A stretch of DNA of 64,000 nt from a virus, in the IMG/VR virus record IMGVR_UViG_3300008113_004623, positions 1-64,000 of that record; one strand, written 5' to 3'. The number at the start of each line of letters is the position of its first letter. Within the stretch, counting starts at the first letter, position 1. The translations under genes were made by a program, and so were the position numbers. Under the pieces are notes generated by a model. The model saw only the letters and a program-made list of their open reading frames with translations, was not told the origin of the DNA and did no database searches. Of the stretch, positions 7,553-32,845 are shown in pieces.

Positions 7553-7584
7553 TTTTGAATAACACGTTTAATTAAACCAACCAT

Positions 7585-7854
7585 ATGTCTACTAAAAAAA
7601 TTGACTTAAACAAAGCTATCACAGATCTTGATGGCAAAGAAATTGAAGGTTCTAACTTAGGTAAGTTAGTTGCACAGGTATTGGCTTCTTCTAACAAAGG
7701 GGACGCTCTAAAGTACATGTCTTGGGCTTTAAAATTGCATGCAGGAGAAAGCTTAGAGCTAGATCCTTCTGATGCAGAGACCCTAAAGAATTTTGTAAAA
7801 GACCACGAGCAGTTAACTATCTTAACTAAAGCTCAGGTATTAGGCGCATTCTAA
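7585..7854 (+). CDS. hypothetical protein
   Basis: 89-aa ORF with AAACCAACC leader. Confidence 0.65.
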   Translation: MSTKKIDLNKAITDLDGKEIEGSNLGKLVAQVLASSNKGDALKYMSWALKLHAGESLELDPSDAETLKNFVKDHEQLTILTKAQVLGAF

Positions 7855-8152: not shown

Positions 8153-8254
8153 TTGGCGATTACAGATATTCTATTATATTTGTATCACCATTCAACCTTC
8201 TGTTTTCGTTCTTTATTACCGCAAAAAGGCAGCACCCCCTAGTGCTGCTTTTTT
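8153..8254 (+). ncRNA. candidate ~65-nt small RNA with its own promoter and terminator
   Basis: TTG(8153)-N19-TATATTTG(8175-8182), no ORF, then AAAAAGGCAGCAC-CCCCTA-GTGCTGCTTTTTT. Confidence 0.5.
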
Positions 8255-16368: not shown

Positions 16369-16725
16369 GTGCAACTACATCAATCCTACATAGACATCTT
16401 ATTACGTCTAGCTGGTCATAGACTGTCTGATTTGTACACCAGTATACTAGCGCACAGTTCCTACTACGGCACTATTAACAAAGAAATCAAAGACATGATT
16501 GCCATAGAAAACGAGACTTCTAGTCAAGTTATTTCCAATGCAATCACTAGGTTACGTAAATTAGGATTGCTAGAAAAGAACATCATCAACAAGAAATTGT
16601 CGCCTATGAATAAAGACAATGCTTCAATTACTTTGTTGTTGACTGTTGTTCCTCCTGCACCTGTTGCTACTTCTGCACCCGCTGAGTCTGTTATAACATC
16701 TAATGTGAATGTCGCTGTATCCTAA
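16369..16725 (+). CDS. putative winged-HTH protein
   Basis: IA....TSSQVISNAITRLRKLGLLEK; GTG start. Confidence 0.5.
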   Translation: MQLHQSYIDILLRLAGHRLSDLYTSILAHSSYYGTINKEIKDMIAIENETSSQVISNAITRLRKLGLLEKNIINKKLSPMNKDNASITLLLTVVPPAPVATSAPAESVITSNVNVAVS

Positions 16726-17260
16726 ACGTGAAATAAAATTCAAATCTCATGGATTGTTTTCTGGTATAGCTAGAAAAACAGGGTATACTGTGACGCAAAT
16801 AAATCAAGTATACACTTGGTACATTAATGAGGTGTTAGAACAATTAGGTAGTACTCCTGCTTGTCAAGTTTATTTAAAGGGACTTGGACTTTTAAAATTT
16901 GATGCAGGGTTATCGATTAGAAACTTAGCTGGATTTATTAATGGTCTACAGGTTTCTGTATCTGAGTTTATAGACGACAGTCAACCGCCTAGAGTAACCT
17001 ATAGTTACCTAGTTAACAGACACAAACTTCTTGTAGACGCTATTTATTCTTTCCGTGAGAGACTAGCTAAGCTAAAAAGTTTGGGAAACATCAACGAGAC
17101 ATACTACATTAATAAGTTGACTCGTTCAGAGAAACTAGAAAACCAACTAAATCAAATATATGAATCTATTCAAAGAATACCTGAGTATCAGCAAAAAAGG
17201 ACTACAGAACGCGGACAAGATTTTGTATGGACTGACGAACAAGGTAGCAAACCATTTTAG
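16709..17260 (+). CDS. HU/IHF-like N-terminal domain protein
   Basis: IARKTGYT..QI..VY...QVYLKGLGLLKF. Confidence 0.45.
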   Translation: MSLYPKREIKFKSHGLFSGIARKTGYTVTQINQVYTWYINEVLEQLGSTPACQVYLKGLGLLKFDAGLSIRNLAGFINGLQVSVSEFIDDSQPPRVTYSYLVNRHKLLVDAIYSFRERLAKLKSLGNINETYYINKLTRSEKLENQLNQIYESIQRIPEYQQKRTTERGQDFVWTDEQGSKPF

Positions 17261-17534
17261 ATTATTAAGTGATGAGAAAAAAGAAATTATTGCAGATCGA
17301 ATGGAACGTTGTCTTGGATGTCCCTACAATTCTCAAAATGCGAGACTATCCCAGGAATATGTCGAACTTACAGGAAAGCACTACGACACAGCCCGACCTG
17401 AGTTACACTGTTCGCTTTGTGGCTGCATCCTCGAAATCAAAACCTCGTCCCTTTCTTCGGATTGTGGTATCGTAGACTGGAACGAAGATAATCCAGATAA
17501 ACAACTAGAACCTAAATGGACTAAATATGAATAA
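17160..17534 (+). CDS. Zn-binding protein
   Basis: RCLGCP...CSLCGC.L..KT.....C...W. Confidence 0.65.
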   Translation: MNLFKEYLSISKKGLQNADKILYGLTNKVANHFRLLSDEKKEIIADRMERCLGCPYNSQNARLSQEYVELTGKHYDTARPELHCSLCGCILEIKTSSLSSDCGIVDWNEDNPDKQLEPKWTKYE

Positions 17535-17680: not shown

Positions 17681-17896
17681 ATGGAAACCAACCAACCTAA
17701 GTCAACCTTCAATAAAAAAGAAATCATTGAGTCGCCTAAGACTTTTCAAGATGCTTTGCTGTCTACAGTAAAAGTTTTCTGGAAAGCAGGCTATCAATAT
17801 TCTCAGAAGGGTAAGAATGAAGATTTTTACTCTACGTTGTTGGAAGACTTTATGAATTTATCCTATCAAGAATTTTTAAAAAAATATGGCGAATAA
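17681..17896 (+). CDS. hypothetical protein
   Basis: 71 aa; overlaps the start of the next gene. Confidence 0.6.
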   Translation: METNQPKSTFNKKEIIESPKTFQDALLSTVKVFWKAGYQYSQKGKNEDFYSTLLEDFMNLSYQEFLKKYGE

Positions 17897-18201: not shown

Positions 18202-20214
18202 ATGTATTTAGACAGTCCTGAATTTCTAATCAACGTTAAACGACTTCCAGACGCAGAGTCTGATGAGTACACTGCGTTTTGGCAGAACGAGGACAAGAAA
18301 ATCAATGAAGGAGTTACTATCAATGGATTTTATTTTTCGCCATTTATCTATTGGCATTTGAATTTTGGCGCATTATATATTGACGAAAAAGTTGGTAATC
18401 GGAATATTAGAAAACTAGGAAAGCCCCAATTATGGGACACTTACCTAGAAGTAGATGATGCAATCTACCGAGCCGAGACCCATTCAGAAGGAAAGAAAGG
18501 GTTAGTTATTGTAGGTAGTCGACGTATCTCAAAAACTATTTTAACTTCTTCGTACATTGCGCACAAAGCAATCACACTTCAGGGAGGAGACAATTTGATA
18601 TCAGCTCTAAACCAACCCGACTTGAATAACACCACTCAAGCCGTAGATTTGATATTAAGAAACCTCCCTGATTATTTTAGATTCCCCCGTATTGAAGATG
18701 ACTGGAAGCGTCAAGTAACTCTTGGTTACAAAGACAAGAAAACCAACGCACGACACGAGTGGTCCAAGATACACGTTAGAAACTTTGACGAAGGCAACAA
18801 CACGGAAGCAGCGGCAGGTCTTACCTTATCTTCGTTTATGCTTGAAGAAGCAGGTAAGGGTAGAATCCTAAACTGCTTGGCTGCGACTATTCCTTGTTTT
18901 GACTCACCGTATGGCTGGCGTTGTTCTCCTATTGTAATTGGAACATCGGGAGACATGACGAAAGCAGGAGACTTAGAGGAACTCTTCAATAATCCAGACG
19001 CTTATAACTTTCTTCCTGTAGCTGTAGAAGAATCAGGTAAGTCTTATGGCTTGTTTGTTCCAGGAACTAAATCACTTAAAGTTCCAAAAGAACCAACGCC
19101 TCTTGGACTTTATTTAAAAAAAGAAGAACCCTCCGAATTAGACAATATTACTATTTGGGTAGCTGACCAAGAAAAAGGTCACGAAATGATTATCAAGAAC
19201 AGAGAGCAAGTAAAGAAAGCTTCTGGTCTTGAAGCCTACCTAAAGGAAGTAATGTACTACCCACTCACGCACGAGGAGTGTTTTATGGAAATGTCGCAGA
19301 ACATTTTTCCTGTAGATCTTTTACAAGAACAACTCCAAAAACTAATAGCCAACGAAGTACGTGCAGATTTTGTAGAATTGTACGTAAAGCCTGATGGAAA
19401 GATTGCCCATAAGTTTACCGATAAAAAACCCGTAGAAAACTTCCCTACAAAGCCCGCAGACAACTTAGAGGGCGTGGTTCAAATCTGGGAATATCCTGTA
19501 CTAGATGCACCTTATGGTTTATACACAGCAGGAACTGACCCATATAAACAGTCACAAGCCCAGTACTCTACATCTTTGGGATCAACCTATATTTATAAGC
19601 GAGTACATAATATTTCTGGAGAGGGATGGCAAAACATTGTAGTTGCTTGTTATACAGGTCGACCTAAAAAGATTGAGACGTGGTATGAAACAACCAAGAA
19701 TCTTTTGAAGTTCTACAACGCCAAGACTTTGTGTGAAAACATGGACTATGGTTTTATTCAACACTGTGTTGAGAAGAACGAAGGTCCTCGTATTCTAGAA
19801 CGTACTCCCTCTTTCTTAACAGACATCCACCCCAACTCAATGGTAAACCGTGACTACGGTATCCACATGACTAAGGAAATCAAAGCGTACTTATTGGGTC
19901 TAATCATTGAATACATAACCGAAGTAATTGATGTAGAAAGAGATTCTGACGGCAATATTGTAAAAGAAAGACTAGGCGTAACAAGAATCTTAGATCCTCT
20001 TTTAATAAAAGAATTAATAAAATATACACCAAAACTCAATGTTGACCGTATTATTGCATTTGGTTTGACGCTTGCTATGACTAGAAGTCTTGCGAACAAA
20101 GTTGTCATTCATAGCAACACGGAAGATGATAGGATTCGGGAATATTTTCAAACCAAAAAAATTGCTAGTCCATTTAGGTCTGGCTCCTTAACACCATTTT
20201 CAAGATTTAGATAA
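18202..20214 (+). CDS. terL: terminase large subunit
   Basis: Walker A-like GSRRISKT, Walker B MLEEAGK, VIGTSG, nuclease AGTDPY and NVDRI. Confidence 0.92.
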   Translation: MYLDSPEFLINVKRLPDAESDEYTAFWQNEDKKINEGVTINGFYFSPFIYWHLNFGALYIDEKVGNRNIRKLGKPQLWDTYLEVDDAIYRAETHSEGKKGLVIVGSRRISKTILTSSYIAHKAITLQGGDNLISALNQPDLNNTTQAVDLILRNLPDYFRFPRIEDDWKRQVTLGYKDKKTNARHEWSKIHVRNFDEGNNTEAAAGLTLSSFMLEEAGKGRILNCLAATIPCFDSPYGWRCSPIVIGTSGDMTKAGDLEELFNNPDAYNFLPVAVEESGKSYGLFVPGTKSLKVPKEPTPLGLYLKKEEPSELDNITIWVADQEKGHEMIIKNREQVKKASGLEAYLKEVMYYPLTHEECFMEMSQNIFPVDLLQEQLQKLIANEVRADFVELYVKPDGKIAHKFTDKKPVENFPTKPADNLEGVVQIWEYPVLDAPYGLYTAGTDPYKQSQAQYSTSLGSTYIYKRVHNISGEGWQNIVVACYTGRPKKIETWYETTKNLLKFYNAKTLCENMDYGFIQHCVEKNEGPRILERTPSFLTDIHPNSMVNRDYGIHMTKEIKAYLLGLIIEYITEVIDVERDSDGNIVKERLGVTRILDPLLIKELIKYTPKLNVDRIIAFGLTLAMTRSLANKVVIHSNTEDDRIREYFQTKKIASPFRSGSLTPFSRFR

Positions 20215-22746: not shown

Positions 22747-22766
22747 AAATAACCAAACCAACCTAT

Positions 22767-25498: not shown

Positions 25499-25515
25499 TC
25501 TAGGCGGTCTCTGAC

Positions 25516-25537
25516 GGGGGAGCCTTAAAACTCCCCC
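25516..25537 (+). terminator. GC hairpin after MCP
   Basis: GGGGGAG-CCTTAAAA-CTCCCCC with a weak U-tail. Confidence 0.5.
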
Positions 25538-25575
25538 ATTAGGGATAATAGATTAAAAAACAAAAAAAACCAACC

Positions 25576-30333: not shown

Positions 30334-32250
30334 ATGGGACATTGTACTGATTGTTACGGATCTTCAGTTGTAGCCCCTTGCAGTGATCAAGGTTGCTTAT
30401 CAACAAACTGGGCTAAGTGTATTACTTACTCAGGTGTAGACTTATATTGCGCAACTGGCGCACTTGGAACTATTAGCATTTCTGGTACTGCTGTTGTGCC
30501 TGGAACCACTACTACGCACTCAAATGTATCAGGAGTAAACCTTACTGGTTCAGGTGTAGGTGCCACTTTTGACGTAGTAAGAACTGCAGGAAGTAATACT
30601 TACACAGTAATTATTGCCAACAGAGGTTCTGGATATGCTCCTTTAAATCAGATTAAAATTTTAGGAACTAGTGTAGGAGGTGCTTCTCCAGCTAACGATA
30701 TTACGTTAACTGTACAAACACTAAATGCAGTTATTCCTACAGGAGCTAACTTAGACACCATTATTACTACTTTCCACAATGCTTTGTGTTCTGCAGTAGT
30801 TGGCGGTGGCGGTGTAGATTACTCTGCATTAAACTATTCTTGTCTTCGTCAAAACGGAGTCTTGACAGGAATTGGAACTCCGATTACCACTGAAGCTCAG
30901 TTTGTACAGTCTGCATCTGCTGCAATGTGTGCATTAAACACAACGCTTCAAGATTATGATGGACAAATTATCTTAAATAACATCGAAGGAGCCATACCAG
31001 GTTTACCTGCAACTTATAACTTAGATCAGTATTTAACTTCTCTTACTTCTTATGTAAATACTATTAGAAGTTATGTAGAAATGGATACTGTGTTAGGTAA
31101 TCCTTGTATTAGCTATCCTTTTTCAGCAAAGCCTACTTCTGATTTAATTTCTGATTACATTAATTGGATTACAAGTAATATGTGCGGCATGCACACTTCT
31201 TTAAGTGGATTTGCAGCTACAACAGCTACAACAGCAAATAACTTAAAGACATATATCTCTGGAGTTGGTGCAGTGCCTGCAAACGTAAACACGTCTTCTC
31301 TGCCTGGTGGATCTGCAACTAGTACTGCGTCAGCAGCTATTAGTTTGCTTGTTTCTCAAGTAGCTAGTATTAATGGAACTTTGTTAACAGTACCAACTGC
31401 AAACTATGCATTAACTTGGGCATCTTGTTTTCCTAGTTCTTTCCCAGCTAACTCAGTATTTACTGGACAAACTTGGAACTATACCAACACAGCAACTACT
31501 TTACAAACTCAATTAGATCGTATAGTAGCAGTTCTTTCTACGCTAAACATAAAATTCGACAATACGAAATTTACCATTACTGCAGGATCTTGTGGTCCTA
31601 CAATTGGTTTAGCTGCAGGAGTTGCATTTACTCCAGCTAGTTTGAATGCTGCTGTATTAAACGACCTAGGAGACGTAACTATAACTTCACCTTCTAACGG
31701 GGATATTTTAACCTATGAGTCAGCAGTTTGGAAGAACAAAGCAATTACTGTAAAAGTAAACGGCTCAACTGTTGGAGTTACTAAGACTGTAAGTGCAAGT
31801 GAGGTTGCCTTTGACTTAGCTTTAGTTAATAATACTCCAGTTATTTATCCATTGATTGGTGCAAGTTCTGCTGAGTTTGCCGTAGTTAATGCTACTAGAT
31901 TCCCACTAGGAGGTCAACCATTCCCTTACGCAGTTTTGCACGGAAACATGGTAACTCTACATGGAGTACTTCAGCTTAATATGGTAAGCTTTACTTGGAA
32001 TCACTTAGCGTCTAAGTTAGTAGCTACATTACCAGCAGCAGTAAGACCTGCTTCAACTGATGTATACTTTAATGCAGAACTATACATTAAAGTAGGAGCA
32101 AACTACTCTTCAGTTTATACTAGAGCTACTGGACACATTACACCTGGTGGTAATTTAAATCTAAATTTAATGAACCCTGCAGGAGGTATTGTACTTACTT
32201 CAGGAGATTTGATTGAAGTAGTAATAGGAGGCGTTACCTACGCTATATAA
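30334..32250 (+). CDS. Cys-rich fibre/spike protein
   Basis: CITYSG N-terminus, LNDLGDVTITSPSNGDILTY...WKN, and C-terminal VTLHG...ATLPAAVRP (gp53-like) motifs. Confidence 0.65.
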   Translation: MGHCTDCYGSSVVAPCSDQGCLSTNWAKCITYSGVDLYCATGALGTISISGTAVVPGTTTTHSNVSGVNLTGSGVGATFDVVRTAGSNTYTVIIANRGSGYAPLNQIKILGTSVGGASPANDITLTVQTLNAVIPTGANLDTIITTFHNALCSAVVGGGGVDYSALNYSCLRQNGVLTGIGTPITTEAQFVQSASAAMCALNTTLQDYDGQIILNNIEGAIPGLPATYNLDQYLTSLTSYVNTIRSYVEMDTVLGNPCISYPFSAKPTSDLISDYINWITSNMCGMHTSLSGFAATTATTANNLKTYISGVGAVPANVNTSSLPGGSATSTASAAISLLVSQVASINGTLLTVPTANYALTWASCFPSSFPANSVFTGQTWNYTNTATTLQTQLDRIVAVLSTLNIKFDNTKFTITAGSCGPTIGLAAGVAFTPASLNAAVLNDLGDVTITSPSNGDILTYESAVWKNKAITVKVNGSTVGVTKTVSASEVAFDLALVNNTPVIYPLIGASSAEFAVVNATRFPLGGQPFPYAVLHGNMVTLHGVLQLNMVSFTWNHLASKLVATLPAAVRPASTDVYFNAELYIKVGANYSSVYTRATGHITPGGNLNLNLMNPAGGIVLTSGDLIEVVIGGVTYAI

Positions 32251-32253
32251 GAT

Positions 32254-32322
32254 ATTGACAGGATTTAGGTTGGTTTCCCCTGTCTAATGCTGAAATGAGC
32301 CTAGGAGACTAGGCTCTATCAG
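32254..32322 (+). promoter_or_regulatory. tandem hairpin element (16-nt loop hairpin plus GAGA tetraloop hairpin)
   Basis: GACAGG/CCTGTC enclosing ATTTAGGTTGGTTTCC, then GAGCCTAG-GAGA-CTAGGCTC. Confidence 0.6.
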
Positions 32323-32334
32323 TTTAAGATAAAC

Positions 32335-32364
32335 TTGACTAAAAATGAAATTTAAGTATATTTG
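32335..32364 (+). promoter_or_regulatory. Bacteroidota sigma-A type promoter
   Basis: TTG(32335)-N19-TATATTTG(32357-32364). Confidence 0.7.
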
Positions 32365-32378
32365 TAATACGTAGAGTT

Positions 32379-32845
32379 ATGCTAACTAATGCAGAATTAA
32401 TCGCTAGAGTTAAAAATGCTATGATTTAAGTTGTAATGTACGAAGAACTAAAAATAAACTTCCTAAAATAGAAGAAGGATTATATTCCTACTTTATTCAG
32501 GGGGTATTTAATACTTCAAACTCTGAAGAGTTGTTTCCAACAACAATCAGAGATTTCATCAACCACAGTCGCCTAAGAGTTAAAACGCCAAAGAAATTCT
32601 ACACAATTCGTAATGGTTACTTATATGTACTAGACCCTGACGTAGAGTCTGTGAATATGTATGCCTACTTTACTGAGTCAATTGAAGATGCTGATGGATC
32701 TGAATGTCTTAGTATGTACGATAAAGAATTTAAGATTGCTTCCTATTTAGTTGATCCTTTAATTCAGTTGGTTAATCAGGAATTAATTAATTACCATAAG
32801 TTACCAGTTGAGCAAGAGGATAACAATAGAGATGAACAAATTTAA
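32379..32845 (+). pseudogene. tail ring protein gene broken near 32420
   Basis: MLTNAELIARVKNA stops at 32429; a second frame open from 32414 reads CYDLSCNVRRTKNKLPKI...NGYLYV...EDNNRD. Confidence 0.65.

Follow-up and report, generated by a model that had tools for sequence, protein, structure and literature searches.

Small RNAs (sRNAs) that derive from the 3′ untranslated regions (UTRs) of protein-coding genes and act by base pairing are known from enterobacteria, where CpxQ, SroC, DapZ and MicL are of this type. The c4 RNA of temperate phages controls immunity through the ant gene; it is encoded 5′ of its target and excised by RNase P, and its loops block translation of phage genes. For icaR the 3′ UTR pairs with the 5′ UTR of the same, single monocistronic mRNA, on the Shine-Dalgarno sequence, and inhibits translation. 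Of the phage-encoded sRNAs known, most belong to phages that infect Proteobacteria. In Bacteroidota, a phylum that to our knowledge lacks Hfq, the crAss-like phages rank with the most abundant phages; in the literature we found no description of a phage-encoded sRNA from crAss-like or Bacteroidota phages, and no report on post-transcriptional control in crAss-like phages.

We describe here a two-hairpin element from an uncultured freshwater crAss-like phage. The window, the 64,000-nt stretch of DNA that was analysed, covers the first 64 kb of an IMG/VR virus record of 100.5 kb. Like CpxQ-type sRNAs, the element is found in the 3′ UTR of a protein gene with which it shares a putative intrinsic terminator, and it has a short, conserved, single-stranded candidate seed just 5′ of the terminator hairpin that is complementary to the initiation regions of several mRNAs. 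It differs from them in being encoded by a lytic-type crAss-like phage and apparently aimed at that phage's own head genes, in carrying its seed in a hairpin loop, and in having candidate targets that lack Shine-Dalgarno sequences. With c4 RNA (P1/P7, RF01695) it shares a transcription unit with targets and the use of a loop that would pair at the ribosome-binding region; unlike c4 it is a 3′ UTR with a terminator, and its candidate targets are head-assembly genes. As in icaR of Staphylococcus aureus, a 3′-UTR motif would pair with an mRNA initiation region, but here there are several candidate targets, some of them on other transcripts. It would join other phage sRNAs (reviewed in PMC12197685) as a phage-encoded base-pairing RNA of the lytic cycle; among these, the PreS RNA of lambda is described as acting on the host replication machinery (bioRxiv 10.1101/2024.10.31.621285). 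GibS of Bacteroides thetaiotaomicron pairs across an initiation region that lacks a Shine-Dalgarno sequence, as is proposed for the element, and differs from it in being transcribed from a promoter of its own, in having a 5′ seed that is long (30–50 nt) and unstructured, and in being a host gene that regulates metabolism (PMC7366714).

The two-hairpin element and its setting

The crAss-like gene layout of the genome, giant ORFs included, is evident from the ORF list and from profile matches: PHROGs identify the terminase, portal and major capsid protein, and Pfam identifies tail ring proteins 2 and 1 just 3′ of the element. Promoters are of the TAnnTTTG type and Shine-Dalgarno sequences are absent, for which reasons the host is very probably a member of Bacteroidota. 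No near or cultured relatives were found in the phage collection (the best protein match was at 26% capsid identity), a DNA pattern scan of the viral set for more diverged copies returned the same clade only, and a scan of the genome collection gave chance matches only and therefore no clue to the host.

The element follows a 638-aa late gene (30334–32250, + strand) that probably encodes a tail fibre; its product has a Cys-rich start and a variable C-terminus and found no match in Pfam and PHROG searches. Hairpin 1 (32257–32284, + strand) is predicted by folding to pair GACAGG (32257–32262) with CCTGTC (32279–32284) around an open 16-nt loop, ATTTAGGTTGGTTTCC (32263–32278), and its stem can be extended, with one bulge, to 32254–32288. 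Alignment of lineages delimits a loop core, UUGGUUU (32270–32276, + strand), as the candidate seed. Hairpin 2 (32289–32325, + strand) consists of a long GC-rich hairpin (32289–32323), capped by the GNRA-type tetraloop GAGA (32305–32308), and a trailing UUU. The two-hairpin fold has a free energy of −27.9 kcal/mol (z = −3.5), none of 200 shuffles folded as well, and z ranges from −3.5 to −4.9 across four lineages. The loop of hairpin 1 is open in both the minimum free energy and the centroid folds.

Judged by its form, hairpin 2 is the intrinsic terminator of the late operon. Its counterparts in relatives combine a GC-rich hairpin with a U-tract, and for one of them (L018) the terminator scan makes a call; in the window only UUU follows the stem, a T-run too short for that scan, which made no call. 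Behind it stands the promoter of the next operon, that of the tail ring proteins (32335–32364, + strand), composed of TTGACT, 16 nt and TATATTTG; it scores 10/12 in the promoter scan, is invariant in all relatives, its box is of the Bacteroidota TAnnTTTG −7 type, and the gene that follows matches Pfam CrAss_Ring_2. In all lineages the element lies 3–10 nt 3′ of the stop codon of the 638-aa gene or its counterpart. This placement just after a stop codon, with an invariant promoter behind, shows that the late structural operon has its 3′ UTR and terminator here. A 3′-UTR location with a terminator shared with the coding gene is one hallmark of 3′-UTR-derived base-pairing sRNAs, and a conserved single-stranded seed, also found here, is another. 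Between the stop codon and hairpin 1 there is no TAnnTTTG box, the spacer being only 3–10 nt and the upstream coding sequence unconserved, so that an independent gene with its own promoter, of the GibS type, is not what the locus resembles. No Rfam family (c4, RF01695, included) reached its gathering score at the element in the window or in the loci of six relatives, the best sub-threshold match being SpF41 (E = 0.39), whose 21 bits fall short of the required 52, and we found no paper on the hairpin element.

Two further possibilities gained no support. A function on the − strand is discounted by the lack of any ATG 3′ of the motif on that strand and by stem wobbles that fit only an RNA of the + strand. 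A pseudoknot of the loop with the linker or with downstream sequence can be drawn in one subgroup only (GGGUU with AACCC) and is not conserved.

Close relatives were represented by 48 IMG/VR contigs with capsid identities of 81–98%, which we refer to as the window's genus. The element is present in 44 of the 44 that reach the site, as well as in about 35 metagenome contigs, and it is conserved where the 3′ end of the upstream gene can no longer be aligned. Each of six close genomes checked has one hairpin copy. The stem and loop of hairpin 1 are kept, with GGUUGGUU (32268–32275) as the invariant block of the genus; GGUUGGUU and GGTTGGTT are each unchanged in more than 60 unique copies. Four pairs of hairpin 2 are changed on both sides (RNAalifold), and departures from pairing are G-U only, never A-C, which fits an RNA made from the + strand. 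Its tetraloop is always of the GNRA type among close relatives (GAGA, GAAA, GUGA, GUAA or GCAA); beyond the genus, the terminator has such a tetraloop in the distant lineage L347 (19613–19650), and the other lineages have loops of 6–7 nt.

Alignments of the ring and capsid proteins led to 13 distant crAss-like lineages that carry the element, with capsid identities of 31–66%; to the alignment reference, G067, which is itself 66% identical to the window, 12 of the 13 show 31–35%. At the same locus all 13 have a hairpin with a 10–18-nt loop and then a strong terminator. The stem sequences of hairpin 1 are wholly unlike among them and all still pair, at least 13 different stems being seen, for example GUUCA/UGAAC, GGAGG/CCUCC, UGAGU/ACUCA, GCUGG/CCAGU, UAGUG/CACUG, CUUGA/UCAAG and UCUCC/GGAGA. 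In four rows that align flush, five of five pairs are changed on both sides with 100% pairing, which none of 500 shuffles matched. While stems vary in this way, UUGGUU is invariant across 19 aligned lineages, so the loop is conserved in relatives near and far, as the earlier note's reading demanded; the sole variant of the core that we saw is AUGGUUU, in L347. A small covariance model of hairpin 1 (R1) recovers part of the family together with some antisense leader sites and was not used for counts.

Complementary tags at start codons

The core of the U/G-rich loop, with its lineage-specific flanks, is the Watson-Crick complement, as sequence comparison demonstrates, of an A/C-rich tag of the form AAACCAA(C/U/A)... 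that occurs in the short leaders, devoid of Shine-Dalgarno sequences, of a few phage mRNAs. The hairpin and motif sequences quoted in the earlier note were all found where it had placed them, and its estimate that fewer than one such 9-mer would be expected per 64 kb agrees with our count: AAACCAACC is present in six copies in the window against 0.70 expected, and none of 100 shuffles reached six. Five copies are on the + strand, at 7574, 17685, 18609, 22755 and 25567; the single − strand copy, which is the sole antisense 9-mer, is the hairpin loop itself (32268–32276). A seventh copy in the 100.5-kb genome (76910–76918, − strand) lies 14 nt before an ATG and is sense relative to the − strand gene module.

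Enrichment at starts, on which the idea of a regulon depended, is clear genome-wide. AAACCAAC is the top enriched 8-mer at −30..−1, occurring in 7 of 99 genes against 0.23 expected (p < 0.001, with a first-order model of the upstream regions themselves as background), and is thereby level with TATATTTG, the Bacteroidota −7 promoter box. It occurs 18 times in the genome, 15 of these in the sense of transcription and about nine within 20 nt of a start codon. Over six close genomes, tag 8-mers outside the hairpin number 42 in the sense and 7 in the antisense orientation.

When target sites are predicted between −40 and +6 relative to start codons, the scaffold-like gene ranks first in the window. 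Its tag, AAACCAACCUA (22755–22765, + strand), is an 11-nt perfect complement of the loop that ends 1 nt before ATG 22767 and lies 8 nt after a TACTTTTG promoter box. On the other side of the capsid gene, AAACCAACC (25567–25575, + strand) adjoins ATG 25576 of a 312-aa gene. These two genes carry a complementary leader tag in nearly every lineage, and the capsid gene between them never does. Among 20 lineages, the leader of the gene before the capsid gene outpairs the capsid leader with the lineage's own loop in 18 of 19 and that of the gene after it in 20 of 20; their pairing with the own loop also exceeds that with shuffled loops (18 of 19 for the former leader, 18 of 20 for the latter), and the two genes are in the top three of their locus in 12 and 13 of 20 lineages. 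The tag adjoins the AUG in the window's genus and lies 16–24 nt upstream in distant lineages. For the scaffold-like gene in several lineages it comes 8–9 nt after a TAnnTTT(G/T) promoter box and is therefore at or near the 5′ end of the mRNA. Some lineages have the hairpin with only weak tags at the flanking genes (L341, L346 and part of L343 and L344), and the L347 loop variant has a single central mismatch to both leaders. In the distant lineages L333–L337 and L343–L345 another conserved box, (A)ACUACAU(U), closes the tagged leaders and directly precedes the AUG.

The product of the gene before the capsid gene consists of helices only and has a disordered, acidic N-terminus, features that fit a scaffold. 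The 312-aa protein encoded after it is highly conserved; searches of Pfam, PHROG and PDB sequences gave no match for it, and a half-confident structure model (pLDDT 60) gave no fold match. Between the capsid gene and this gene, at 25505–25566, we noticed a GC-rich hairpin (GGGGGAGCC..CTCCCCC) that looks like a partial terminator; if it is one, genes from 25576 on would depend on read-through, which may bear on the stoichiometry of the flanking proteins relative to the capsid protein.

The remaining sites are less secure. Overlapping 11-nt complements, GGAAACCAACC and AACCAACCUAA (17683–17700, + strand), occupy codons 1–7 of a 71-aa ORF (17681–17896) and give the best predicted duplex of the genome (−18.9 kcal/mol); the motif is in the same place in most of the genus and missing from the G067 orthologue, and is therefore genus-specific. 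Another AAACCAACC (7574–7582, + strand) stands 2 nt before ATG 7585 of an 89-aa gene. At 17140–17152 (+ strand), AAACCAACUAAAU is found 7 nt before ATG 17160, and the motif and the ATG are kept in several relatives; the frame from this ATG has a weak PHROG match, and its standing as a start is uncertain because it lies within ORF 16709–17260. The earlier note had listed this motif as a start site, which holds for the motif and is doubtful for the start. Of the regulon that it proposed, the two genes flanking the capsid gene stand as conserved targets, and the sites at 7585, 17681 and 17160 are genus-specific or uncertain. The internal copy that it reported is indeed present (18609–18617, + strand), 415 nt into the terminase large-subunit gene where it encodes LNQPDL; some members of the genus retain it and others have lost it, hence it is probably a coding coincidence and probably not a target.

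Two side observations concern the tag. With ATG 17160, the AACCAAC tag inside the 183-aa ORF 16709–17260 opens a 124-aa overlapping frame (17140–17534), which may be an overlapping gene or an internal start. In L009 (12790–12810) and at the same site in L046, both close relatives with a loop identical to that of the window, a 15-nt insertion (ACTAACCAACGCTAA) with an AACCAAC tag is found between the terminator and the next promoter.

Joint change of loop and tag across lineages

Loop and tag differ together between lineages. Loops with G-UUGGUUU go with AAACCAAC and loops with A-UUGGUUU go with AAACCAAU. In G067 and G068 the loop reads UUUAUUGGUUUU where the window's genus has ..GGUUGGUUU, and the ratio of AAACCAAC to AAACCAAU (C to U) at starts is 22:5 in six genomes of the genus versus 1:10 in G067 and G068 together (Fisher p = 6e-5). 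The switch is seen at the same orthologous genes, namely the scaffold-like gene, the post-capsid gene and the 85019 homologue. Several versions of the loop, with G, A or U preceding UUGGUUU and with differing 3′ flanks, each have matching leaders, and some lineages have perfect complements of their own: a 14-nt perfect loop complement ending 1 nt before the ATG in G067, a 13-mer in L337 and a 12-mer in L335.

That loop and leaders would co-vary in relatives had been put forward as a check on the antisense idea, and across lineages they do. In an own-versus-cross comparison of 16 lineages, a loop finds a longer perfect complement in its own locus than in those of other lineages (p = 2e-5, longest complement); by duplex energy the same 16 lineages give p = 0.005, and the comparison restricted to the 11 distant lineages gives p = 0.008, permutation values that overstate the number of independent events because the lineages are related. 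Start sites account for about 5% of positions; in eight genomes, 38 of the 88 perfect complements that are 9 nt or longer and on the sense strand are found there, and in seven of the eight the longest loop complement is at a start. G068 tested alone against shuffled loops was not significant (p = 0.105).

The own-versus-cross comparison gives no signal inside the window's genus (p = 0.31), for the reason that the loop core never varies there; it is invariant even in sublineages with few perfect tags (G003 and G004). Seed-target complementarity with co-variation, a further mark of 3′-UTR-derived base-pairing sRNAs, is thus found between lineages and is negative within the genus. In four of six whole genomes of the genus, start regions pair more favourably with the own loop than with shuffled ones; the predicted duplexes are short (9–14 bp) and A-U rich, coding sites of like energy exist, and in two of six close genomes the duplex energies do not cleanly separate start from coding sites genome-wide. 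On close relatives alone, the antisense idea would be no more than plausible.

A more distant relative marked as a provirus, G069 (record L309; GC 42%), has a recurrent but different tag, (U/A)UAACCC, at about 15 of 62 starts, and a hairpin complementary to this UAACCC tag was not found in it; leader tags can therefore exist without this hairpin RNA.

Predicted mode of action and rival readings

The hairpin structure, the conserved loop, the position of tags at starts and the joint change of loop and tag are each established at the level of sequence. That the loop pairs with the tagged leaders we consider likely, and we lean, with some reserve, towards an antisense 3′-UTR RNA that pairs with these leaders and probably represses their translation. 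The 3′ UTR of the late operon, behind the gene at 30334–32250, would fold into the two hairpins, the second being the terminator, and the hairpin with its terminator would act either as a regulatory RNA, about 70 nt long and derived from the 3′ UTR, or while still forming the 3′ end of the long mRNA. The duplex would cover or abut the AUG in the window's genus; in distant lineages it would form 16–24 nt upstream, a distance at which we assume that a bound 30S subunit can still reach it, and blocked 30S binding is thus the most likely effect. With the build-up of late transcripts, translation of the scaffold-like and post-capsid proteins would be turned down in comparison with that of the capsid protein, which has no tag. 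GibS offers a precedent in Bacteroidota for an sRNA that represses its targets by pairing at an initiation region without a Shine-Dalgarno sequence (PMC7366714).

Loop and tag might instead have independent functions, with their complementarity incidental or indirect: the tag would be an enhancer or an unstructured leader, and the loop a protein site, bound by a host or phage RNA-binding protein or by a nuclease, or the partner of a host RNA. Translation initiation in Bacteroidota relies on unstructured leaders and A-rich upstream positions (PMC6847099), and the invariance of the loop in sublineages with few perfect tags, the lack of covariation inside the genus and the G069 tag family without a hairpin all suit such a separation. 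It leaves unexplained, however, the joint change of loop and tag flanks across lineages and the private 12–14-nt perfect complements abutting start codons. The capsid gene, moreover, is never tagged though probably the most heavily translated, so the tag is not a general mark of strong translation, and we regard independent functions as unlikely. As to the loop's possible partner in the host, a role as mimic or decoy of 16S rRNA was rejected, since none of 30 16S genes sampled across Bacteroidota contains GGUUGGUU, AUUGGUUU or UUGGUUU.

The pairing itself could take place within a single molecule, the 5′ tag of the transcript from the scaffold promoter contacting the 3′ loop of the same late mRNA of about 9.5 kb, so that a 5′–3′ contact would control translation or decay as in icaR with no free small RNA involved. 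In several lineages the mRNA would start at or close to the tag of the scaffold-like gene, the hairpin closes the same run of co-directional genes, and 5′ of hairpin 1 there is no room for a separate promoter. Several tags are nevertheless on other transcripts, four of them on the opposite-strand replication module of the window's genome, and a terminator after the capsid gene would stop many transcripts short of the hairpin; we find action solely of this kind quite improbable, with the proviso that action in cis and action in trans would look alike in sequence. In a related reading, the loop could close the 9.5-kb late mRNA into a 5′–3′ paired circle. A motif that works as DNA is harder still to credit. 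Here the tags would be double-stranded sites of a phage DNA-binding regulator and the hairpin copy one more site in opposite orientation, with loop and tag changing jointly as the specificity of the protein altered; a shared protein would likewise produce co-variation at the level of clades, and some tags do lie just downstream of promoter boxes. Yet the reversed copy is always in a hairpin loop with co-varying stems that tolerate G-U and not A-C, many tags mark start codons that have no promoter close by, being internal to operons or preceded by terminators, and in both gene modules the tags keep to the sense strand (15 of 18 8-mers in this genome, 42 versus 7 in six genomes).

Bacteroidota ribosomes make no use of Shine-Dalgarno pairing. 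Pairing between hairpin and AAACCAA tag might accordingly serve the opposite end, the hairpin acting as an adaptor that brings tagged mRNAs to the ribosome or protects their short leaders. We give this little credence; if true, it would be a stand-in, supplied in trans, for the contact between Shine-Dalgarno and anti-Shine-Dalgarno sequences, marking a private set of phage messages.

The element forms a new RNA family, compact and easily recognised, with internal evidence of its partner; covarying stems, an invariant seed and co-varying targets are the evidence that usually precedes experimental confirmation of a riboregulator. Antisense repression, if confirmed, would make it the first phage-encoded base-pairing regulator in the crAss-like group, as far as we found, and an example of antisense control at a leader tag of non-Shine-Dalgarno type, with a possible role in head assembly through the ratio of scaffold-like and post-capsid proteins to capsid protein. 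For annotation of uncultured crAss-like genomes, the tag can mark true start codons and the hairpin the end of the late operon.

Some minor observations on these genomes may be of use. At 8153–8254 the window contains a TATATTTG promoter standing by itself, an unstructured RNA stretch of about 35 nt and then a terminator; complementarity to the AAACCAA tag or to the hairpin loop is absent from this unit. The window has no tRNA genes in array, and arrays of up to 11 tRNA genes occur about 8–10 kb upstream of the capsid gene in distant lineages (L336, 11–1484; L345, 179–1458; L335, 2263–2410). Tail ring protein 2 is encoded by a broken gene in the window (32379–32845): compared with L008, a 98%-related contig with an intact 213-aa gene, about 175 nt are lost after codon 14 and the frame is shifted, so that only the C-terminal 104 codons (32531–32845) stay open, reflecting either a defective genome or an assembly error.
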